This document shows positions 32,748 to 43,763 of a stretch of DNA of 64,000 nt, piece after piece. Below the pieces are notes generated by a model that was given only the letters and a program-made list of their open reading frames with translations, was not told the origin of the DNA and did no database searches. Both the position numbers and the translations under genes were made by a program. Every line of letters begins with the position of its first letter. The first letter of the stretch is position 1. The DNA is from Spirochaetia bacterium (lineage in GTDB: Bacteria; Spirochaetota; Leptospiria; Turneriellales; JAOUOS01). The DNA lies in the NCBI GenBank assembly GCA_029880265.1, contig JAOUOT010000008.1:43311-107310 (forward strand), written 5' to 3'.

Positions 32748-32959
32748 GTTTTGCAGAAGTTTAACCCTTTATCTGAAATTTCAAAATAATCTTCTTCGGG
32801 TTCAAGAACAAAGCCCTTTGATTTTAGGTTTTCAACAATGTTTCTTATCATAAAGATACTGATTCCCAGGGTTTCATTTAAACCATAAATTGATAAAAAG
32901 CAGTTTGCGGATGTCTTTTCGTAGATTTCAAGCAGTACAAGTTTATCCGGCTCTTTCAA
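32735..32959 (-). CDS. Small hypothetical protein, possibly winged-helix
   Basis: 74 aa, 4-nt overlap with the upstream polyferredoxin gene; its 3' end overlaps hypF convergently by 13 nt. Confidence 0.35.
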   Translation of the reverse strand: MKEPDKLVLLEIYEKTSANCFLSIYGLNETLGISIFMIRNIVENLKSKGFVLEPEEDYFEISDKGLNFCKTQWL

Positions 32960-34596
32960 AATCTATTGATTCCTTCGGCAGATTTTGGCGTTGTCACTCT
33001 AATGGCCCCGTCGCCCGGTACGGGACATTTGTTTTCGCATATACCGCAGCCGATGCATAACTCTTCAATAACATAAGGCAGCATGACTTTGACTTTTTCA
33101 TTTTTTTTGTTAAACGATATTTCGTTTCGAAATTTAATAGCCTTATCGCTTGTGGGGCACATTTCTTCGCATACTATACAATTGATTGACTCTGCCCATG
33201 GGATGCACCTGTCTTTATCAAAATAAGCGGTGCCGATAATATATTTTTCTTTATCGGTTTTTTCATATTTTTCAAGAGCGTCTGTAGGGCAGATTTTTGA
33301 GCATAAATTACAGTTTTTCTCGCAGTAACCCAGGCGTGGTATAAGGCGAGGGGCAAACATGCCCTCAATGCCCGTTTCTAAAAAAGCCGGATGAAGGGCG
33401 TTTGTGGGGCATACCTTCATGCACTGGGCGCATCGAATACATTTTTGTAAAAAGTCTTCTTCGTCTCTTGAGCCCGGCGGACGTATTATATAAAAACTTC
33501 CAATTTTTTTATTCGCGTTTACTTTCAAAAAAGGAATAAAAAATAAAGAGGCCAAAAAACCCTGCAATATTGTTTTTCGGGTAATTTTTGTATGCTGATT
33601 TTCTGTTTTTTGTACCGTTATTTCGGGTTTTAAGATTTTATTTTTAATAAAGTCGGGCGCGGTAAACTTAAAAGCAGCCGCCTGCGATGGGCATACCTTT
33701 AAGCATTCAAAGCATTTTATGCATTCTTCTTCAAGCGTTTTTTGACCGTTATCAAAAATAGCGCTCATGCGGCAGCTAATCTGGCACTTTTTACAGCTAT
33801 TGCATTTTTTGGGATCGACAATTCTTCGAAATATAGAAAATTTTGAAGATATGGCAAAAACCGCGCCTAACGGGCACAACGATTTGCACCAGAATCTTTT
33901 GTTTATTATAGACAATAAAAGTACGGTTAAAAAAACAAAAAAAACGGGAACATGTTCATAGTAGGTAACGCGGTTAAAATCAAGAAAATGATCTTTAAAA
34001 AAATCAAAAACCGGCTCTGATATAACATTAACCAAAGGAACATAATATAAACCTTCAAAAATAATTCTAATAAGTCTGTCAAAATAAGCGTATAGAGTAA
34101 CCGCATATGATCTGTAGGCCATAGACAAAGGGTCAACAACCCCCGAAATATGCACCCCCGCCAATGCCGTTAAAAGAGATATAATTAAAACGGCATACTT
34201 TAGACTTTTTAACTTTGCCGCTTTTTTATCATATTCAAAAGACGATGATTTTTTTCTTATAAGGGCCCTATCAGAAGCGTCAATGGTAATTCCCATGGGG
34301 CAAATCCATCCGCAGAAAAAACGTCCAAAAAATATTACCGTTAATAAAACGACAAAAGATATAAAAAATGTTTCAGCAAATTTCATGGTCGCTAAAGAAA
34401 CGCTTAACGACAAATGAAAAGAAAGCGTTGTAAAAAGATTATAAAAAGAAGGTTCGTCAACAGGATCTCGGGCGTAAATTAAAAAAGATATAAAAAAAAG
34501 CCAGAAAAGAAACTGGCCAAAAGCCCGCATTTTAGACCAATAAGAAGCGTTCATATTATTATACGGAGAAAATATAAAATATGCCGGCGTAAGCAA
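32956..34596 (-). CDS. Membrane-bound polyferredoxin (NapH/MauN-like N-terminal domain plus multiple 4Fe-4S domains)
   Basis: CGWICPMG and WCKSLCPLG membrane-domain motifs; six CX2CX2CX3C(P)-type motifs (e.g. CIKCFECLKVCP, CIRCAQCMKVCP, CIGCGICENKCP). Confidence 0.75.
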   Translation of the reverse strand: MLTPAYFIFSPYNNMNASYWSKMRAFGQFLFWLFFISFLIYARDPVDEPSFYNLFTTLSFHLSLSVSLATMKFAETFFISFVVLLTVIFFGRFFCGWICPMGITIDASDRALIRKKSSSFEYDKKAAKLKSLKYAVLIISLLTALAGVHISGVVDPLSMAYRSYAVTLYAYFDRLIRIIFEGLYYVPLVNVISEPVFDFFKDHFLDFNRVTYYEHVPVFFVFLTVLLLSIINKRFWCKSLCPLGAVFAISSKFSIFRRIVDPKKCNSCKKCQISCRMSAIFDNGQKTLEEECIKCFECLKVCPSQAAAFKFTAPDFIKNKILKPEITVQKTENQHTKITRKTILQGFLASLFFIPFLKVNANKKIGSFYIIRPPGSRDEEDFLQKCIRCAQCMKVCPTNALHPAFLETGIEGMFAPRLIPRLGYCEKNCNLCSKICPTDALEKYEKTDKEKYIIGTAYFDKDRCIPWAESINCIVCEEMCPTSDKAIKFRNEISFNKKNEKVKVMLPYVIEELCIGCGICENKCPVPGDGAIRVTTPKSAEGINRF

Positions 34597-34798: not shown

Positions 34799-35650
34799 TC
34801 AGAAAGTATCAAGAAGTTTCAAAACCAGCTTTGACGAAAAATTCGCCTGAGCCAGCATCGCCGTACCACTCTGAAGTAATATCTGATTCTGAGTGAACTC
34901 GATCATCTCTTCGGCCATATCGGTATCGCGTATTCTTGACTCTGCCGCGACCATATTTTCATAACCCGATCGAAGAGCGTCAATGGTGATGGCCATTCTG
35001 TTATATGACGCTCCAAGATCGGCTCTTTGTTTGTTCAATATGTCTAATGCCTGATCGACAACGCCAATCATACTGTTAGCCTCTCCCACGGTAGATATAG
35101 AGGTTCTTTTGCCCCCGTTATCTACCAGGCTAAAAGCCTGAGCATTCATTGTCGCGACATATGCCCTTATTCTTTGGTTTTGATTCGGACCGACATGAAA
35201 AAATATCGTGCCGGTTTTGCTTCCCCGCGCTAAATTTCCGTCAAGAATTTTTAGGCGGTTAAACTCAGCCTGCGTTGAAATTCTGTTAACTTCATCGATT
35301 AGCTGTGAAACCTCAACCTGAATTTGGGACCTGTCGGCCTGGGAATAAATTCCGTTAGCCGCCTGAACCGAAAGCTCCCTGATGCGCTGTAAGATATCGT
35401 TTACCTGTCCCATGTTGCCTTCGGCAACCTGAATAAACGAATGTCCCATAAGCGCATTTCTTTCGGCTTGTTTAAGCCCGCGAATTTGCGTGCGTATTTT
35501 TTCCGAGACGGCCAAATTTGTGGCGTCATCCCCGGCTTTATTGATACGCATACCGGTGGCCAGTTTTTCCGTTGAACTCTGCAGCCGCGTATATGTCTGG
35601 TGCAGCTGCCTATTCACGAACATGGCCGAAATATTGTGTCGAATCTGCAT
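34799..35650 (-). CDS. flaB: Flagellin, spirochaetal FlaB (core filament) type
   Basis: 283 aa. N-terminal MRINKAGDDATNLAVSEKIRTQIRGLKQAERN, central RIRELSVQAANGIYS..DRSQIQVEVSQLIDEV and C-terminal QILLQSGTAMLAQAN blocks. Confidence 0.88.
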   Translation of the reverse strand: MQIRHNISAMFVNRQLHQTYTRLQSSTEKLATGMRINKAGDDATNLAVSEKIRTQIRGLKQAERNALMGHSFIQVAEGNMGQVNDILQRIRELSVQAANGIYSQADRSQIQVEVSQLIDEVNRISTQAEFNRLKILDGNLARGSKTGTIFFHVGPNQNQRIRAYVATMNAQAFSLVDNGGKRTSISTVGEANSMIGVVDQALDILNKQRADLGASYNRMAITIDALRSGYENMVAAESRIRDTDMAEEMIEFTQNQILLQSGTAMLAQANFSSKLVLKLLDTF

Positions 35651-35957: not shown

Positions 35958-36076
35958 AACTATTAAACTGAATATAGATTATTTTATCTTATTTAAAGAT
36001 AGGGCGCGTTATTTAACGCTACATTATGCCTCATGGAGATATGAGGGGTATTTGCTTTTTTTTTGTTTTTTTTTAA

Positions 36077-36535
36077 TTATTTTGCGACACGAAGATACGT
36101 ATCAACAATATTTTTTATAGGCTCTATCGCTTTAGGCGACGATTGTTCTTCAAGCCATAAAGCTAACTGTACCGATAAATTGTGATTTTTATTAAATTCG
36201 TGTTTTAATACATACTCGGCTAACGGATATTTAATAATCTCAAAAAGCTCTTCAGCTACATTAAGATATTCAGGATCTGAGCCAAGGTAAGAGGCAATGC
36301 ACGCAATTAATTCATGCTTTTTCATGTCGGCTATTTCTTTAGAAATAGCGGTTTCGTTGTCTCCCTCTATTTTATCGTCAAAACCCGAGCAAAAGTTACA
36401 TCTTAATTTTGCTTTGGCGCTTTTATCAACTGTATTAGACTGGTATGTATTTTCGGTAATTTTTTTTCTTTCTTTCATAAGATTTCCTTTATGCGCGGTA
36501 ATTCTCTTAATATTTATATTTTTTACAATATTCAA
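36077..36535 (-). CDS. Hypothetical protein
   Basis: 152-aa ORF, no motif recognised; start may be an internal Met. Confidence 0.4.
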   Translation of the reverse strand: MNIVKNINIKRITAHKGNLMKERKKITENTYQSNTVDKSAKAKLRCNFCSGFDDKIEGDNETAISKEIADMKKHELIACIASYLGSDPEYLNVAEELFEIIKYPLAEYVLKHEFNKNHNLSVQLALWLEEQSSPKAIEPIKNIVDTYLRVAK

Positions 36536-36593
36536 TTTAATACTATAAAATTAAAAATAATTCGTCAAAAAATTTACGTTTTTTTTAAATTTA

Positions 36594-36622
36594 TTTGACA
36601 ATATTAGTAATTTATAATATAC
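36594..36622 (+). promoter_or_regulatory. Sigma-70-like promoter of the Trx-TrxR / peptide-module gene string
   Basis: TTGACA (36594-36599), 17-nt spacer, TATACT (36617-36622), ~85 nt before the first ATG. Confidence 0.4.
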
Positions 36623-36708
36623 TTTTTATCATAAGAATATATGCTTGGTTTAATAAAAATTCAATAAAAATCGAGTTTTTTATATATACTTAAATATGAG
36701 ATAAAATT

Positions 36709-38001
36709 ATGGTTAAAGAGATAACGTCTGAAGAATTTGAAAATATAGTATTAAAAAGCGGGCAGAGCGTTGCCCTTGATTTTTATTCGACAGAATGCCC
36801 CCCGTGCGAGTCGTTGGCGCCAAAATATGCAGATATTGCAGATCGTTTTTCAGAAAAAATAACTTTTTATAAAATGTTCAGGCAAGAAAACCGCGATTTG
36901 GCCCTGAAACTTGGGGTTACATCGAGCCCTACCGTATTATTTTTCAAAGACGGTCAAGAAACAGGCGAAAGACTTTCGGCTGCCGTTAAAAAAAGAGAAA
37001 TTATAAACGAGCTTGAAAAAATGCTTGAGCCGGCCGATTTTGAAAAATTAAATCAAAAAAGACCTCTTGAAAAAAAACAGGCCGATTTGCTTATTTTAGG
37101 CGGAGGTCCGGCGGGGCTTTCGGCCGCTTTATACGCGGCCCAGGCGAAGTTAGATACCGTACTTATTGACGAGGGCCTTGCGGGCGGGCAGGTAAGCACC
37201 ACTCATATGATTTCAAATTATCCGGGAACCGGCAAGCCGATAGCGGGATACGCATTGGCCCACAGCATGAAAGTTCAAGCCGAAGAGGCGGGGGCCAAAA
37301 TTATTTCTGCCGTAGACGTAAGCCGGGTTGAATTTTCTGAAACGGAGCAAAATCATAAAATTACTTTTGACGACGAAATTGAATATGAGGCGAAAGCCGT
37401 AATTTTAGCGATGGGCGCCGAACCGAGACTCTTAGGAGTAAACGGCGAAAAAGAGCTCAAGGGTAAGGGTATTTCATACTGCGCCACATGCGACGGAAAG
37501 TTTTATGAAGATTTAGAGCTTGTCGTAATAGGCGGAGGTAACTCGGCCATTGAAGAGTCGCTTTTTTTAACAAAATTTGCGTCAAAAATTACCATTATAC
37601 ACCAGTTTGCCGAACTTCAGGCAAATAAATTGGCCCAGGAAAAAGCTTTTGAGAACGGCAAAATAAACTTTATTTTTGAGGCGGAACCCAGAAAATTTGA
37701 AAAGAAAGAAAATAAAATGATTGTTACGTTTGAAAATTTAAAAACAAAAGAGACATCAGAAATTATTACTGACGGAGTATTCGTTTTTGTGGGCATGTCT
37801 CCTAAGCTTGGCTCAATAGCCGAAAAGCTTAATACAAACGGCAACGGATATATAATTACAGACGAAGATATGCAGACAAATATCAAGGGCGTTTACGCGG
37901 CCGGCGATATAAGGCAAAAGTCTATTAGGCAGGCGGTTACAGCGGCTTCAGACGGATGTATCGCCGCGATAACGGCTGAAAGATATATTAATAAACATTA
38001 A
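36709..38001 (+). CDS. Thioredoxin-thioredoxin reductase fusion protein (N-terminal Trx domain, C-terminal TrxB)
   Basis: N-terminal Trx fold with a CPPC active site (STECPPCESLAP). TrxR part with GGGPAGLSAALYAAQ, redox CATCDG and GGGNSAIEESLFL. Confidence 0.85.
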   Translation: MVKEITSEEFENIVLKSGQSVALDFYSTECPPCESLAPKYADIADRFSEKITFYKMFRQENRDLALKLGVTSSPTVLFFKDGQETGERLSAAVKKREIINELEKMLEPADFEKLNQKRPLEKKQADLLILGGGPAGLSAALYAAQAKLDTVLIDEGLAGGQVSTTHMISNYPGTGKPIAGYALAHSMKVQAEEAGAKIISAVDVSRVEFSETEQNHKITFDDEIEYEAKAVILAMGAEPRLLGVNGEKELKGKGISYCATCDGKFYEDLELVVIGGGNSAIEESLFLTKFASKITIIHQFAELQANKLAQEKAFENGKINFIFEAEPRKFEKKENKMIVTFENLKTKETSEIITDGVFVFVGMSPKLGSIAEKLNTNGNGYIITDEDMQTNIKGVYAAGDIRQKSIRQAVTAASDGCIAAITAERYINKH

Positions 38002-38005
38002 AAAA

Positions 38006-38656
38006 ATGGGAGAAAAAATGAACGAAGGTACGTTAAGCGAAAAAATTCAAATTAGATACTTAAAAGAAGCCGGCTCAAACTGCTGTTTATCATGCGGGGG
38101 AGCGTTAGATTTCGCCGATTTAAAAGAAGGCGAAACCATGATAGATTTAGGCAGCGGACGAGGTCACGATGTGATAAAAGCGGCCGACATGGTAACGCCT
38201 TCAGGCCATGTTTACGGCATTGATTTTACCGATGAAATGATAAAAACAGCCGAAAAAAACATAGAAAAGTTAAAAATAACAAACGCTAAAATTCTTAAAA
38301 GCGATATTTCTAACATTCCGCTTGAATCTGAAACTGTAGACGCCGTTATTTCAAATTGCGTTATAAATCACGCTCTTGATAAAGAAAAAGTATTTCGCGA
38401 AATTTTCAGACTGCTAAAAACTGGCGGCCGTTTTATCGTATCAGACGTTATAAGCGAAAGCGAACTTCCCGAAGAAGTTAAAAACGACCCTGAAGCATGG
38501 GCAAAATGCTATGGGGGCGCGATACCAAAAAATGACTATTTTAGCGCCGTTGAAAACGCGGGTTTTAACAATATTGATATTCTTGAAGAGTCGAATTCTT
38601 ATGAAAAAGGCGGCGTCTTGGTAAGAAGCATTACAATACGATCATATAAAAAATAA
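38006..38656 (+). CDS. ArsM-like SAM-dependent methyltransferase
   Basis: GSNCCLSCGGALDF..GETMIDLGSGRGHD SAM-binding block and C-terminal AKCYGGAI..AGF block resembling arsenite/thiol methyltransferases. The likely true start is ATG 38018, behind GGGAG. Confidence 0.75.
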   Translation: MGEKMNEGTLSEKIQIRYLKEAGSNCCLSCGGALDFADLKEGETMIDLGSGRGHDVIKAADMVTPSGHVYGIDFTDEMIKTAEKNIEKLKITNAKILKSDISNIPLESETVDAVISNCVINHALDKEKVFREIFRLLKTGGRFIVSDVISESELPEEVKNDPEAWAKCYGGAIPKNDYFSAVENAGFNNIDILEESNSYEKGGVLVRSITIRSYKK

Positions 38657-38683
38657 AACAAACAAAACAAAACAAAACAAAAA
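38655..38683 (+). repeat. AAAAC pentanucleotide tract
   Basis: AAAAC AAAC AAAAC AAAAC AAAAC AAAAA between the methyltransferase stop and the GGAG of the small ORF. Confidence 0.6.
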
Positions 38684-38692
38684 GGAGAAAAG

Positions 38693-38833
38693 ATGAAATC
38701 GCTTGTTAAGAAAATTGAAGAAAAAAAGAACACCACCAAAATAGATAAGAAAGAAAATAAAGAAGAAAAGCCAAAGACGGCGGCGCAATGCTGCGCCAAG
38801 ACATCGAAAGTTATTTCGGGCTGTCACGATTAA
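38693..38833 (+). CDS. Unannotated 46-aa Cys-rich peptide, candidate RiPP/cofactor precursor
   Basis: GGAG 5 nt upstream of the ATG. Translation MKSLVKKIEEKKNTTKIDKKENKEEKPKTAAQCCAKTSKVISGCHD. Immediately upstream of a radical SAM/SPASM gene. Confidence 0.45.
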   Translation: MKSLVKKIEEKKNTTKIDKKENKEEKPKTAAQCCAKTSKVISGCHD

Positions 38834-39002
38834 TTTTTTTACTTTATGGGTGGGGCTGTGTAAAAAGTCCATGATTCTTCTCGACTTTGCATGCCAGTGG
38901 CAACTGCGTAACGAAGAACATTGATTTACTGCACCCTGAACGGCCTCGAAAGGCGCGATTTGTAAGTTACTGCACAACTCCATCCATAAACCAAGTTTTC
39001 TA

Positions 39003-40343
39003 ATGAAAAAATCAAAATATACGTTTACAGTTAACAAAAATGACGGTCTGGTTTTAATGAACTATATGTCAGGCGCGGTCGACAAGATTGAAAAAGACGA
39101 GGCCGAAGAGTTCCTGAAAAGATATGAATCTGATAACTGGTCAGATTATGAACATATGGTCCATTTGTATAAAAACGGATATTTGTGTAAAGACGAAACA
39201 GAAGAAAACCAAAATATCCGCAAAAAGTATATTGAATTTTCTGAAGAGTATGAAAATACGCCGGTACAGCTTATTTTTTCAACCACGTATGCCTGCAATT
39301 TTTCGTGCTCTTACTGTTTTCAATCTGACTATAAAGAAGACAATGTTTTATTAAATAATGAAATTATCAATAGTTTTTTTAACTATATTGAAAAACGATT
39401 TAATGACGAAAGTCAAAGGCCCTATATTACTTTATTCGGGGGCGAGCCGCTGCTTAACGGAAAAACCTACAAAGACGCTCTATTGTATTTCTTAAAAACC
39501 GCTAGAGATAAAAACTATGAAATCGCTATCGTAACCAACGGATATACCCTGTCTGAATATGCGCCTATTTTTAAAGAAGAAAATATAAAAATCAAAGAAA
39601 TACAGGTTACCTTAGACGGCGATAAAAATATGCATGACGGGCGAAGAAAAACAAAAACCGGCGGCGAAACTTTTGAAAAAATCGCGGCGGGCATTGACGC
39701 CGTTTTAAAATTGGGATACCGCGTAAATTTAAGAACCATCATTGATAAAGAAAATATTAGCAAACTGCCTTATCTTGCCCAATACTGTGAAGATAAAGGC
39801 TGGCTTGGTTACGGCTCAAAATACTTTGAAAGCACAGTCGGCAGAAACTATGAATTATACGGCTGCGGCAAAGGCGCCAATTTATTTGACCGCTTAACAA
39901 TGTGGCAGGAGTTTATAAAGCTTGCCGAAGAAAATCCTATACTAAAAAGATTTCACAAACCTCAATTTCACGGAATACGTTATTTGTCAGAAAACAAAGA
40001 GCTTCCCATGCCGGTTTTTGACGCCTGCCCCGCCGGTAAAAAAGAATGGGCCTTTGACGCAAAAGGAAATATATACGGATGTACCGCCTCTGTTGGCGTT
40101 GAAAAATATAAACTGGGCAGTTTTTTAGACGAAAATGAACCTTTAAATACCGATCAAATTGAACAATGGGCCTCAAGGGACGTTTTAACGATAGAAGCCT
40201 GTAAAAACTGCGCGGTCAGCTTATCTTGCGGCGGCGGGTGCGGGGTTATCGCCTGCAACGAAACCGGCAAAATATTAAGCGAAAATTGCCGACCTGTAAA
40301 AGAATTGATTAAATTAGGGTTAGAATATTATAACATAATCTAA
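39003..40343 (+). CDS. Radical SAM/SPASM-domain peptide-modifying enzyme with N-terminal extension of RRE size
   Basis: CX3CX2C at residues 98-105 (CNFSCSYC), GGEPLL. Complete SPASM Cys pattern: C342, C360, C400-X2-C403-X5-C409-X3-C413, C418, C429. Confidence 0.85.
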   Translation: MKKSKYTFTVNKNDGLVLMNYMSGAVDKIEKDEAEEFLKRYESDNWSDYEHMVHLYKNGYLCKDETEENQNIRKKYIEFSEEYENTPVQLIFSTTYACNFSCSYCFQSDYKEDNVLLNNEIINSFFNYIEKRFNDESQRPYITLFGGEPLLNGKTYKDALLYFLKTARDKNYEIAIVTNGYTLSEYAPIFKEENIKIKEIQVTLDGDKNMHDGRRKTKTGGETFEKIAAGIDAVLKLGYRVNLRTIIDKENISKLPYLAQYCEDKGWLGYGSKYFESTVGRNYELYGCGKGANLFDRLTMWQEFIKLAEENPILKRFHKPQFHGIRYLSENKELPMPVFDACPAGKKEWAFDAKGNIYGCTASVGVEKYKLGSFLDENEPLNTDQIEQWASRDVLTIEACKNCAVSLSCGGGCGVIACNETGKILSENCRPVKELIKLGLEYYNII

Positions 40344-40356
40344 AAGAGAGTAAAAA

Positions 40357-40521
40357 ATGAAAAAAACAATAACAATAAAAGAATTCAGCGAAGAACTAAA
40401 GGTTCGAATTGAAAAAGATCAGACAATTGACTGCTGTAAAGACGAGATTCTTAAACTGGCCGAAGTTGCAGCCGATAAAATTGGCTCTCAAGAGATTGAA
40501 GTAACCTGGCAAGAAGCTTAA
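40357..40521 (+). CDS. Unannotated 54-aa ORF with a CC pair (second precursor or accessory protein)
   Basis: ATG 13 nt after the rSAM stop. MKKTITIKEFSEELKVRIEKDQTIDCCKDEILKLAEVAADKIGSQEIEVTWQEA. Only a weak AGAGAG RBS. Confidence 0.3.
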   Translation: MKKTITIKEFSEELKVRIEKDQTIDCCKDEILKLAEVAADKIGSQEIEVTWQEA

Positions 40522-40663
40522 GAATTTATCGTTTTCATGCTTGCTACGAGCGTGTGAAGAATATAGATACGCGCAGAGATTAAACAATTATCAATAAAAA
40601 ATGGCTTTCTAAACAGTCTTGATTATAATATTTACCATTGAATAATTTAGAGGAAGTAAACAA

Positions 40664-41017
40664 ATGGCGTTATTGGTACTTTTAAATAACTGGATGCACG
40701 ATTTTAGCGCGGCAGGCTGGATTTTTTCAACCTTTGTTATCATGAAACTTATACAGCATTATCAAAAAGACGATAAATTAAAAAACGCAATAGTTCCCGT
40801 GTTAAAAACCATGAAACTTTTAATGCATTACTCGCTGGCTGGCATCGTCATTTTCGGAATAGGAAGAGCCCTCGCTTATAAAGAATATGAATGGAGCGAA
40901 GAAGCGGGAGACAGCCAGCTTATTTTACTTGCGGTAAAGCATGTTGTATTAACGGCGGTTTTTATATGGGGGGTTATTTATTACAGAAAAGCTTTAAAAA
41001 TTATAAAAAGCTCTTAG
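40664..41017 (+). CDS. Small polytopic membrane protein
   Basis: 117 aa, 3-4 hydrophobic helices, RBS AGAGGAAG upstream. Confidence 0.5.
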   Translation: MALLVLLNNWMHDFSAAGWIFSTFVIMKLIQHYQKDDKLKNAIVPVLKTMKLLMHYSLAGIVIFGIGRALAYKEYEWSEEAGDSQLILLAVKHVVLTAVFIWGVIYYRKALKIIKSS

Positions 41018-41049
41018 AGTTTTGTATAAATTTAATATCAGGTAAACTT

Positions 41050-41475
41050 ATGATGGTTGAATATTATAAATGGTTTAGAATTTTACATTTCACCGGCGTC
41101 ATTTTCTGGATGACAGGCGTCTATTCATGGCTTAAGCTGGCCGAATTAATCGAAAAAAAAGAATATACGCCGGCCGATCATGAAACCTTAAAAAGGGTTT
41201 TCGGCAATGTCTTTATACTGGGCATTCACGCGGGAATTATCATGGCTTTATCGGGCGGCATCGGCATGCTGTTAACCAATATAAACCTTTTATCGCAAGG
41301 CTGGATCTACATTAAATTCTTAACGCTTACCATGATGATTTTAGTTTCAATATTTCAAACAGTCGGCGTTTACAAAGGCGACATAACCAAGCCTTTCGGT
41401 TATGCCGCTTATCACAGCATTATAGGCATGGGCATTATGATAATCTTGGCCATGGTAATATTCAGGCCGTTTTGA
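41050..41475 (+). CDS. HemJ/UPF0093-like small membrane protein
   Basis: 142 aa from ATG 41050. WFRILHFTGVIFWMTGVY N-terminal helix resembles HemJ/CopD-like proteins. The track ORF start at 40891 overlaps the upstream gene and is rejected. Confidence 0.45.
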   Translation: MMVEYYKWFRILHFTGVIFWMTGVYSWLKLAELIEKKEYTPADHETLKRVFGNVFILGIHAGIIMALSGGIGMLLTNINLLSQGWIYIKFLTLTMMILVSIFQTVGVYKGDITKPFGYAAYHSIIGMGIMIILAMVIFRPF

Positions 41476-41531
41476 GTATGACAAAAACTATACTTTACGC
41501 CGTATAAACTATTTTAATACTACCGATCAAA

Positions 41532-42779
41532 ATGAACGAAGTAGGCACGAATACATTGGGTCTGGTTTTTTTGGGCGGCTTAGCGGCCTCTTTGAGCGCC
41601 TGTGTTTACCCTTTAATTCCGATTATTACCGCCATTTTTGGCGCCGCTCAAATTAAAAGCTGGCATAAAAGTTTATTTTTATCGGTAATTTATGTAACGG
41701 GAATGTCTATTACTTATATGGCGCTGGGCATTGCGGCAAGTCTTGGTGGCTCTGTTTTTGGCTCATATATGGGTAACAAGTGGTTTATTATAGCCTTCGG
41801 ATGCATTTTCTTCTTTTTAGGTTTATGGTTTATGGGCATTTTACCCATAAAATTACCAAATTTTGCCGATAAATTACAAGTTAAGAAAAACAATAAGATT
41901 CTATATCCGCTTATTATGGGTATTTTTTCAGGCTTTATCGCAGCTCCCTGTACGGCCCCTTTATTTGGCGCCGTTTTAGCCGATATTGCCGTCAAAGCCG
42001 CAGAAAATCAAAGCATCATACCCGGTACAATGATGGCTTTGGCGTTTAGTCTCGGCATGGGTATGCCCTTTATTTTAATAGGGGGTTTTGCCGTTAGACT
42101 TCCTAAACCCGGCAGGTGGATGCAGGCCGTTAAATATTTCGGGGCCGCAATATTGTTCACAGCCGGATTTCATTATTTTCAAGATTTAGGTTTTGACTTT
42201 CCTCCGGCGAAGGCTGAAATATCCTTGGCAATTACCGGTTTTTTTATTTTTATTGTCTTTTTTATTCTTGCAGAGCCGCTGGTTGATCCCGAAATGGATA
42301 AGACCGTGAAGAAATCTCATGTTTTAACTTTTTTATTAATTGCCGCTTTTGGCCTCTTTATGGCCACATCGCCTTTAGCAAGCCGATCATCGGGCGAGAT
42401 TGAAAAATCTCCCCTTTCATGGAAAACTTCTCTAGAAGACGGGTTAAATTCTGCCGAAGATAAAAATTCAATATTATTGATAGATTTCTGGGCAGAATGG
42501 TGCGTAGCCTGTCACGAAATGGATAAAAAACTTTTTGCCTCTGACGAATTTATTGAACTGGCCAACAAAACCAACGTAGTCTTAGTAAGGCTTGATTTTA
42601 CCGACGAAAGCGATAATAATTTAAACCTGGCCCAGAAATATGATATAAAAGGGCTGCCTACAGTCGTCATTACCAACTCAAAAGGCGAAAAACTTGAAGA
42701 TCTAATAGGTTTTCATTCTAAAGAACTTTCTTTATCTGAATTAATCAAGTTTTTTGAAAAACACGCCGGTAAAAAATAG
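41532..42779 (+). CDS. DsbD/CcdA-type thiol:disulfide transmembrane electron transporter with C-terminal thioredoxin domain
   Basis: TM-embedded Cys motifs CVYPLIP and APCTAPL; C-terminal Trx fold with WCVAC. Confidence 0.8.
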   Translation: MNEVGTNTLGLVFLGGLAASLSACVYPLIPIITAIFGAAQIKSWHKSLFLSVIYVTGMSITYMALGIAASLGGSVFGSYMGNKWFIIAFGCIFFFLGLWFMGILPIKLPNFADKLQVKKNNKILYPLIMGIFSGFIAAPCTAPLFGAVLADIAVKAAENQSIIPGTMMALAFSLGMGMPFILIGGFAVRLPKPGRWMQAVKYFGAAILFTAGFHYFQDLGFDFPPAKAEISLAITGFFIFIVFFILAEPLVDPEMDKTVKKSHVLTFLLIAAFGLFMATSPLASRSSGEIEKSPLSWKTSLEDGLNSAEDKNSILLIDFWAEWCVACHEMDKKLFASDEFIELANKTNVVLVRLDFTDESDNNLNLAQKYDIKGLPTVVITNSKGEKLEDLIGFHSKELSLSELIKFFEKHAGKK

Positions 42780-42791
42780 GCGGCGGCGCTG

Positions 42792-43763
42792 ATGGTAAAG
42801 AGCCTTTTTTCTAAAAGTTCTAAAACATTAAAATCAACAGGTAAAACAGGCGGATGGTTTGATATTCACGAAAGCTATTTTGGCCTCGATAGAAAACTGC
42901 CCTATCTGGTGGTTTACGGTAAAAAAGACGGCCCTAATTTTATTGTTACTTCTTCAATTCACGGCGACGAGTTAAACGGCATTGGTCAAATTCATCATGT
43001 TTACAATTCAATTGATCCTGAAAATTTCAGGGGGCGCATGGTTATGCTGCCGGTTGCCAATATTCCCGCTTTTCAAATTCAAAACCGATATTTGCCCGAC
43101 AGGCGAGATTTAAACAGACTTTTTCCCGGTAATTCTGAAGGCTCTGAAGGAAGGCGCCTTGCCAATATCATATGGAACACTTCAATAAAAGACGCCGATT
43201 TCGGTTTAGACCTGCATTCGGCAAGCTATAACCGCTGGAACTTCCCTCATATTCGGGGGAACATGAGATTAGAAAGGGTAAGGTATATGGCAAAATCTTT
43301 TGAGGCGCCAATTGTCATGCACAGCCAGGGGGTGTTAGGCTCTTTAAGACGCGAGGCGACAAAAAGAAATATACCCTTTGTTTTATTTGAAGCGGGGCAG
43401 ATTAACCGCTTTGAAACCCGAGCCTTTGAAGCGGGCATTTCGGGAATCTGGAACCTCTTGCACGCTCTTGATATGATAAGCGTAATTCCCGAACAGGTGC
43501 ATAAGAAAAAAGGCGCGCATAAATATTACAAAAGATCAACATGGATGCGAGCCTCTTGCGGCGGATTGTTTTACGCTCTGGTAAAACCAGGCGATGTCAT
43601 AAGAAAAGGTCAAACTCTGGGTAAAATATATTCTCTGTTAGGCGAGTTGAAAGACGAAATAAAGGCAGAAATAAGCGGCAGAATTTTAGGGTTTAATCTT
43701 CACCCGCAGGTAATGCCCGGCAGAGCGTTGTTTCATATTTGTTATGAGAAGTATCCGCTTTAG
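42792..43763 (+). CDS. Succinylglutamate desuccinylase/aspartoacylase (AstE/AspA) family zinc hydrolase
   Basis: SIHGDELNG zinc-binding block, DLNRLFPG, LDLHSA blocks; 323 aa. Confidence 0.7.
   Translation: MVKSLFSKSSKTLKSTGKTGGWFDIHESYFGLDRKLPYLVVYGKKDGPNFIVTSSIHGDELNGIGQIHHVYNSIDPENFRGRMVMLPVANIPAFQIQNRYLPDRRDLNRLFPGNSEGSEGRRLANIIWNTSIKDADFGLDLHSASYNRWNFPHIRGNMRLERVRYMAKSFEAPIVMHSQGVLGSLRREATKRNIPFVLFEAGQINRFETRAFEAGISGIWNLLHALDMISVIPEQVHKKKGAHKYYKRSTWMRASCGGLFYALVKPGDVIRKGQTLGKIYSLLGELKDEIKAEISGRILGFNLHPQVMPGRALFHICYEKYPL

Follow-up and report, generated by a model that had tools for sequence, protein, structure and literature searches.

What does a short cysteine-rich peptide do between a methyltransferase that resembles arsenite methyltransferases and a radical S-adenosylmethionine (SAM) enzyme of the kind that modifies peptides? 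The question is raised by a 64,000-nucleotide stretch of DNA from a Spirochaetia bacterium (GenBank assembly GCA_029880265.1, contig JAOUOT010000008.1, positions 43,311 to 107,310), here called the window. A first reading of its letters, made without database searches (the sequence-only reading), had proposed that this locus is an undescribed peptide-modification module, and everything that it described in the letters was confirmed. We found that four genes, encoding an ArsM-like methyltransferase, a cysteine peptide, a radical SAM/SPASM enzyme (rSAM), and a fusion of thioredoxin with thioredoxin reductase (Trx-TrxR), are one module that recurs among anaerobes from five bacterial phyla or more. 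Judging from homology and conservation, we consider it somewhat probable that this cassette is an undescribed, widespread intracellular peptide-maturation system of the SCIFF/ranthipeptide kind, tied to thiol or metalloid chemistry. In the window, the four genes and a fifth one for a small CC protein probably constitute one operon:

36709..38001, forward strand: Trx-TrxR fusion, with CPPC in the N-terminal Trx part and CATC in the C-terminal TrxR part
38018..38656, forward strand: short-form class I SAM methyltransferase, probably of the ArsM family, with 212 aa (alternative ATG at 38006)
38693..38833, forward strand: precursor-like peptide, 46 aa, with an MKSLVKK leader motif, a Lys/Glu-rich linker, and the invariant core AQCCAKTSKVISGCHD-stop
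39003..40343, forward strand: predicted rSAM/SPASM peptide maturase with an N-terminal domain like a recognition element (RRE) of ribosomally synthesized and posttranslationally modified peptides (RiPPs), 446 aa (from profile, alignment, and fold model)
40357..40521, forward strand: accessory protein of 54 aa in which an IDCCK motif is invariant (from small-protein homologues)

We scanned one genome per species for relatives of the rSAM protein and found them in at least 438 of 185,579 species genomes at an E value of ≤1e-3 (438 of 600 pattern-matching stretches). Database relatives of the protein number in the thousands. All locus counts given here refer to the best 80 of the at least 438 species genomes, drawn from Leptospirales and other Spirochaetota, Bacteroidota, Bacillota, Myxococcota, and Ignavibacteria. 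The cassette was complete within 8 kb in 65 of the 80 loci, and about half of the other 15 were interrupted by a contig end. Homologues of the window proteins were present in 76 loci for the methyltransferase, 75 for the 46-aa peptide, and 73 for Trx-TrxR; a motif scan lifted the peptide count to 76, with two copies each in loci L004 and L021. The sequence-only reading had proposed synteny in relatives as a check on the module. Essentially every syntenic locus, across five phyla, held a small open reading frame (ORF) with the CC-X9-C pattern, accompanied by the methyltransferase and Trx-TrxR. The commonest gene order was methyltransferase, peptide, rSAM, Trx-TrxR, and the reductase was placed first in the window and in five other loci (L001, L002, L028, L051, and L086). 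The closest relative, locus L081 (rSAM 73% identical), matches the gene order of the window exactly, 54-aa ORF included. The GC content of the cassette is the same as that of its flanks and gives no compositional sign of horizontal transfer. The best plasmid matches were other rSAM families at 27 to 29% identity, and no cassette copy was found on plasmids.

The peptide gene begins 36 nt past the methyltransferase stop and behind an AGGAG, where the sequence-only reading had placed a 46-aa Cys-rich ORF, and its cysteines are residues 33, 34, and 44. Among 83 copies the peptide has a median length of 32 aa (range, 31 to 46). The N terminus reads M-K-S-L-[TVI]-[KR]-K in 78 of the 83, and the peptides of loci L019 and L068 show the same motif after a GTG or TTG start codon. 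A basic, variable linker, which contains an additional CC pair in 24 copies, leads to a core made up of the last 16 residues, A-Q-C-C-[AS]-K-x-S-x-x-[VI]-x-G-C-H-[DN]. The stop codon follows immediately, and the core shows no length variation. It was found in 77 of 81 sources as 78 distinct DNA versions, far too often for coincidence. In these versions, the mean codon entropy per site was 0.42 at position 1, 0.37 at position 2, and 1.39 at position 3; the A and S positions that the search pattern had left free were also invariant. Fixed first and second codon positions next to a saturated third position indicate that the ORF is translated and under strong purifying selection. Fifty-nine copies lie on the strand of the rSAM gene and no more than 400 nt upstream of it.

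The peptide is almost never annotated; two NCBI assemblies, for example, list gene calls without it. As the ORF is seldom called, a word-indexed protein search with the peptide gave no more than 4 clusters, and a profile search of 1.84 billion representatives gave 67 clusters, all of them free-standing peptides of 31 to 62 aa. Four representative peptides had no match in Pfam and NCBIfam at an E value of ≤10, the SCIFF precursor model TIGR03973 included. No selenocysteine variant was present in the 80 loci, and two metagenomic matches to a variant with two adjacent selenocysteines (UU) were discarded as chance occurrences within unrelated reading frames. We also set aside one candidate relative from the representative library (P0152, 243 aa), whose four tandem VATCC[VA]KTPT..SGCRD copies are probably a translated DNA repeat.

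The rSAM enzyme has the cysteines expected of a complete peptide maturase, as had been read from its translation. The CX3CX2C motif (C98/C102/C105; Pfam Radical_SAM, 7.5e-18) and the seven-Cys SPASM motif (C342-x12-G-x4-C360, C400-x2-C403-x5-C409-x3-C413, C429) were invariant in an alignment of 24 homologues. The extension of about 95 aa ahead of these motifs had been likened to an RRE by size and position, and the predicted fold agreed: in an AlphaFold2 (AF2) model (mean predicted local distance difference test [pLDDT], 91.2), three strands followed by three helices (residues 7 to 84; pLDDT, ~90) precede the barrel. With the family profile, CteB was the best solved relative (5wgg; E value of 7.5e-27), the alignment covering residues 15 to 426 and thus the N-terminal domain. 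A Foldseek search with the model also listed CteB first (E value of 1.5e-17, full length), followed by anSME, SuiB, TigE, SkfB, and ChlB. On the evidence of the model, the N-terminal domain is RRE-like, i.e., a PqqD-like winged helix.

Among the NCBIfam models, maturases of Cys-rich peptides scored best with the rSAM enzyme: CefB (NF038107) at 149.1 bits versus a cutoff of 600, TIGR04463 at 137 versus 525, Clo7bot at 111, PapB (NF047865) at 110.5 versus 340, the SCIFF maturase (TIGR03974) at 102.9 versus 425, and CcpM at 74 versus 500. The sequence-only reading had named clustering with anaerobic sulfatase maturases as an outcome that would speak against its proposal. We rejected that assignment, as the corresponding model (TIGR03942) scored 81 versus a cutoff of 349 and the enzyme has an RRE-like domain and an adjacent peptide gene. 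By profile comparison, the enzyme is best described as a new family among the RRE-rSAM-SPASM peptide maturases.

The methyltransferase ORF spans 38006..38656. The ATG at 38018 is the likelier start, with a GGAG 7 nt upstream and a product of 212 aa, the length called in L081. The protein matched Pfam Methyltransf_31 (1.7e-37), and its proposed likeness to ArsM held in a match to the arsenite methyltransferase model NF008823 (E value of 2e-65; 221 bits versus a cutoff of 263) that covered positions 57 to 235 of 272. Its NCBIfam matches also include ArsS- and ArsL-linked entries. The cassette enzymes (212 to 216 aa) are without the C-terminal domain of the ArsM model. C30/C118/C168 align with C72/C174/C224 of solved ArsM (4kw7/4fr0) and are kept by 99% or more of the 74 cassette methyltransferases compared. 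Conservation of this triad implies selection, as in ArsM, on cysteines that plain methyl transfer does not require. A CC pair at positions 26/27 is 85% and 72% conserved in the same 74 copies and is missing from the Carboxydothermus copy; it lies 2 residues from C30, versus the C44-C72 spacing of ~28 in ArsM, in which C44 is required for the first methylation. These alignments make the enzyme a probable member of the ArsM family, and activity on As(III) is at most predicted.

In two Myxococcota, the methyltransferase and the maturase are joined. Locus L004 (7218-9353) encodes a single 711-aa protein consisting of the methyltransferase, an RRE-like segment, and rSAM/SPASM, and locus L021 (7100-9877) encodes a similar methyltransferase-RRE-rSAM fusion, apparently with an added DUF5714 and interrupted by frameshifts. 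Natural fusion of the two enzymes argues that both work on one tethered substrate. In Bacillota, the rSAM is fused to, or lies upstream of, a Cys-rich DUF5714 that bears GGPRCCKR (AF2 model of the rSAM-DUF5714 fusion P0094; pLDDT, 79). CC-rich tails or linkers (…EVCCC, …VLCC, …AACCS…, and …KSCCCS) were also seen in rSAM homologues P0003, P0044, P0107, P0094, P0069, and P0110.

The Trx-TrxR fusion matched Thioredoxin (9e-21), Pyr_redox_2 (1.8e-54), and TIGR01292 (333 bits versus a cutoff of 343). Its CPPC (CxPC) and CATC motifs are conserved, and the cassettes of most of the 80 loci contain a fused homologue. HRRxxxR is the classical NADPH-binding motif of TrxR, and this site reads H-Q-F-D-x-[LF]-x-A in most cassette copies. 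By comparison with known TrxR enzymes, the electron donor may be NADH or another compound than NADPH.

Genes around the cassette vary, and the following were recurrent but optional neighbors in the 80 loci:

DUF1847: 24 of 80 loci
DUF302: 15 of 80 loci
DUF6132: 14 of 80 loci
Zn-ribbon protein: 11 of 80 loci
NifX-like protein: 8 of 80 loci
OsmC: 4 of 80 loci
ArsP_1 permease: 4 of 80 loci, within 4 to 6.5 kb
Chromate transporter: 4 of 80 loci

Some Bacteroidales have extra thioredoxins between the methyltransferase and peptide genes. Cultured carriers of the cassette include Desulfosporosinus metallidurans, Sinanaerobacter chloroacetimidivorans, and Carboxydothermus pertinax. In Carboxydothermus pertinax, the cassette is flanked by genes for a second methyltransferase, a thioredoxin, a ferredoxin, a CC/Se selenoprotein, CcmH, a rhodanese, and a glutaredoxin-like protein. 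The CC/Se protein (L085, 6827-7114; L084, 11686-11973) has an in-frame TGA (…AYGGG-U-C-PVQQ…) and is encoded just downstream of the cassette Trx-TrxR; one assembly splits the gene into two called fragments, and the protein weakly resembles HesB/IscA. Vicinal CC or UC pairs are thus a shared trait of the methyltransferase, peptide, 54-aa protein, rSAM tails, DUF5714, and this neighboring selenoprotein. Selenoprotein/Cys-pair families of that sort have mostly been implicated in Hg and As biochemistry (PMC13188914). Regulators near the cassette, where present, are of the MarR, Crp, DUF134, TetR, or XRE type. No protease, peptidase, or exporter recurs among the neighbors of the 80 loci, in line with the absence of an adjacent leader protease or ABC exporter that had been noticed in the window, and no immunity gene recurs either. 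E. coli ArsR, ArsB, and ArsC queries found two ArsR-like genes (2 of 80 loci), each 6 kb off the cassette and adjoining an ArsP_1 permease, and no ArsB or glutaredoxin-type ArsC; the queries did not include profiles of Acr3, low-molecular-weight-phosphatase-type ArsC, ArsA, or ArsD. No ars-like neighbor cluster recurs in the 80 loci.

These observations can be assembled into a mechanism. The 31- to 46-aa peptide is very likely the substrate of the rSAM enzyme, whose RRE-like domain would bind the MKSL[TVI][KR]K leader, as the fold, the adjacency of the genes, and the conservation suggest. The enzyme would cleave SAM reductively, abstract a hydrogen from a core residue, and join the resulting carbon to a Cys sulfur held at an auxiliary SPASM cluster. 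The product would be an intramolecular crosslink in AQCC[AS]KxSxxxxGCH[DN]. By analogy with CteB, a thioether is the most likely type of link, and we give it about an even chance. The ArsM-type enzyme would then have as its target either this peptide, still tethered by its leader, or a soft ligand shared by the thiols of the peptide and the Cys triad of the methyltransferase; we deduce this step from the natural methyltransferase-RRE-rSAM fusion and the retained ArsM cysteines. That the peptide or a peptide-bound ligand is its target seems likely to us. The ligand could be As(III) or a similar metalloid or chalcogen, and for a metalloid in that position we would venture only a tentative suggestion. 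ArsM works by a disulfide-cascade mechanism (Rosen lab) and requires a thiol reductant. By extension of that cascade, Trx-TrxR would re-reduce disulfides in the methyltransferase, in the vicinal CC pair, or in both, and a role in disulfide recycling is its probable function. The matured peptide would stay in the cell and have a conserved role in thiol, redox, or metalloid handling rather than act as an antibiotic. Near invariance of the core from phylum to phylum is typical of cofactor-like or SCIFF-like peptides, whereas bacteriocins are hypervariable.

Several points weigh against this mechanism. The rSAM enzyme scores below every NCBIfam equivalog cutoff (at best 149 versus 600), and its chemistry is therefore not confidently transferable from CteB; SPASM enzymes also form C-C and C-O links. 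If all three cysteines ended up in thioethers, none would be left for Trx-TrxR or for a metalloid, so each half of the model sets limits on the other, and the two may be incompatible. No leader-removing peptidase was found among the neighbors of the 80 loci, and ars genes are not recurrent there.

Among known systems, the SCIFF pair CteA/CteB (TIGR03974; 5wgg and 5why) comes closest in sequence and fold. It shares the RRE, radical SAM, and SPASM domains, a short Cys-rich peptide of high conservation whose gene adjoins that of the enzyme, the lack of an exporter or protease, and a distribution among anaerobes. In contrast to SCIFF peptides, which have 6 core cysteines, the cassette peptide has 3 and does not match the SCIFF model, and the rSAM enzyme stays far below the TIGR03974 cutoff (103 bits versus 425). 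We know of no SCIFF locus with an ArsM-type methyltransferase or a Trx-TrxR fusion. CefB, TIGR04463, PapB (ranthipeptides), and CcpM resemble the cassette in enzyme class and in their pairing with a Cys-rich precursor, and they provide the best rSAM profile matches; they differ in the precursor motif and in the methyltransferase and reductase partners, and their cutoffs are far from reached. Overall, the cassette would operate like a SCIFF/ranthipeptide system with an ArsM-looking methyltransferase. The combination of partners appears to be new, as the sequence-only reading had suspected: no Pfam or NCBIfam family covers the peptide, full-text literature searches turned up no description of the cassette, and we found none of these partners described together.

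A rather unlikely alternative is that the cassette is a self-contained module for the methylation of As (or Sb, Se, or Te), or for organo-metalloid synthesis, in anaerobes without glutathione. The CC-X9-C peptide would chelate As(III), much as ArsD does through C12/C13/C18, and hand it to the ArsM-type enzyme; Trx-TrxR would recycle the ArsM disulfide, and the rSAM would either stiffen the carrier or make a carbon-metalloid bond. The strength of the NF008823 match and the near-universal presence of the As(III)-binding cysteines of ArsM (C72/C174/C224 equivalents) favor this explanation, whereas the score under the ArsM cutoff and the missing C-terminal domain speak against it. The CC pair is much closer to the C72 equivalent than in CmArsM (4fr0/4kw7). 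A dedicated Trx-TrxR fits the reductant need of ArsM, and the vicinal CC pairs found throughout the system are an As(III)/MAs(III)-binding motif in ArsD, ArsI, ArsP, and some ArsR proteins. The ArsS and ArsL pathways already combine ArsM with a radical SAM enzyme, and both gave matches to the cassette methyltransferase; however, the cassette rSAM is a SPASM maturase of the peptide-crosslinking type and not of the ArsS/ArsL type. The genomic context is also divided: the ArsP_1 permease in four loci is suggestive, but no ars operon surrounds the cassette within the limits of the queries listed above, and the nearby regulators are those of other families.

We regard as improbable a second alternative, in which the peptide becomes a redox cofactor or a surrogate for a low-molecular-weight thiol. 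It would be a dithiol/disulfide carrier or a methyl-tailored cofactor like mycofactocin or pyrroloquinoline quinone (PQQ), with Trx-TrxR as its dedicated reductase. The peptide resembles MftA and PqqA in being an invariant small precursor with a fixed C terminus (H-[DN]-stop at fixed spacing), the rSAM/SPASM enzyme with its RRE recalls MftB/MftC and PqqD/PqqE, and the product is apparently intracellular, as in those pathways. The mycofactocin pathway also has a tailoring methyltransferase, but simple tailoring leaves the conservation of the ArsM Cys triad unexplained. The core is Cys based rather than Tyr/Glu based, no peptidase that would free a small cofactor occurs among the neighbors of the 80 loci, and MftC and PqqE fall outside the top 25 profile matches of the cassette rSAM. 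Thioredoxin-fold genes, OsmC, rhodanese, DUF302, and the CC/Se selenoprotein are frequent neighbors, and the absence of the usual NADPH motif in TrxR would fit a specialized electron route; yet the patchy, accessory spread (at least 438 of 185,579 species genomes, counting all rSAM relatives) is odd for a core redox buffer.

A bolder proposal, which we hold to be a long shot, is a ribosomally templated organo-metalloid. The peptide thiols would hold a metalloid or chalcogen, the metalloid rather than sulfur would capture the carbon radical generated by the SPASM enzyme, the ArsM-type enzyme would methylate it, and Trx-TrxR would close the cycle. If true, the arsenosugar and arsinothricin pathways would be joined by a third one that pairs ArsM with a radical SAM enzyme, and it would be the first in which the product is peptide bound. 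In a weaker form of this proposal, the peptide would be the physiological arsenic carrier needed by anaerobic ArsM enzymes. Anaerobes with arsM genes methylate arsenic poorly in pure culture, and a carrier role, if true, would explain this.

That the cassette makes a secreted antimicrobial sacti- or ranthipeptide is very improbable: in clusters of that kind, a small Cys-rich peptide as a rule stands beside a CteB-like rSAM/SPASM enzyme, but bacteriocin cores diverge fast and this one is near invariant across five phyla, its leader has no recognizable cleavage motif, genes for a leader protease, an ABC exporter, or immunity do not recur in the 80 loci, and the cassette was not found on plasmids.

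If the favored reading of an intracellular peptide-maturation system is correct, it adds a new family of maturase and substrate with partners, an ArsM-type methyltransferase and Trx-TrxR, that are not known from RiPP pathways. Several hundred bacterial species or more have a relative of the rSAM, and the best 80 carry a microgene that annotation pipelines skip, for a peptide conserved to the degree of cofactor precursors. The system may reveal how organisms without glutathione handle soft metalloids or thiol stress. The cassette methyltransferase would be counted as arsM in metagenomic surveys of arsenic cycling, and if the enzyme works on or through the peptide, inferences from arsM for anaerobic habitats such as paddy soil, sediment, and the gut would need revisiting. 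Should the metalloid explanation be true, the chemistry would be categorically new and would bear on the interpretation of arsM genes in anaerobes. The cassette consists of four small genes and is readily accessible to biochemistry, for which the natural fusions can serve as guides.

Within the window, the cassette genes are closely spaced: the likelier methyltransferase start lies 16 nt past the end of Trx-TrxR, and the 54-aa ORF begins 13 nt past the rSAM stop. Two noncoding features accompany them:

36595..36623, forward strand: sigma-70-like promoter candidate TTGACA-17-TATACT, 11 of 12 consensus positions matched (a consensus match alone)
38834..39002, forward strand: spacer of 169 nt between the peptide and rSAM genes, with a predicted long-range stem

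The promoter candidate is the best match in 36000-43000 and lies ~85 nt upstream of the first cassette gene. The spacer folds with a minimum free energy of -50.2 kcal/mol (z = -3.07) and has a weak terminator-like hairpin at 38853-38870. The stem is possibly an attenuator or stabilizer, a function that is doubtful because the spacer is not kept in L081, where a shorter, unrelated sequence takes the same place. A conserved RNA in the spacer was accordingly dropped as a candidate. An Rfam scan of the whole window gave no match, and a tRNA scan found none.

The second CC-containing ORF, which the sequence-only reading had counted as part of the module, proved to be real without being part of the core. 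It appears in 2 of the 80 genome loci in addition to the window and L081, and a family could be built with P0126 (70% identical and directly after the rSAM in L081), P0127, and ORFs in L009 and L073, in all of which IDCCK is invariant. Pfam and NCBIfam searches, lenient thresholds included, gave nothing meaningful for it. By these homologues, it is a genuine small protein and a lineage-restricted accessory, found in few lineages.

One Bacteroidia locus (L030, 1-5610) contains the rSAM, Trx-TrxR, NifX-like, DUF1847, and DUF6132 genes, and the methyltransferase and the upstream peptide are missing; it may be a degenerate or rearranged cassette. Downstream of the cassette in the window, the same strand (40664-42779) has three genes, for a membrane protein of 117 aa, a second membrane protein that is HemJ/UPF0093-like (41041-41475), and a fusion of DsbD/CcdA with thioredoxin (41532-42779). 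A DsbD-like gene directly adjoins the peptide gene in L020 and lies near the second peptide copy in L004. Upstream, the reverse strand encodes a membrane polyferredoxin of 546 aa that is rich in 4Fe-4S motifs (32956-34596) and a flagellin-like ORF named by reading its translation (34799-35650); taken with the rSAM relatives, these two suggest a spirochaete-like anaerobe as the origin of the DNA. A 152-aa ORF on that strand (36077-36535) has no family match.

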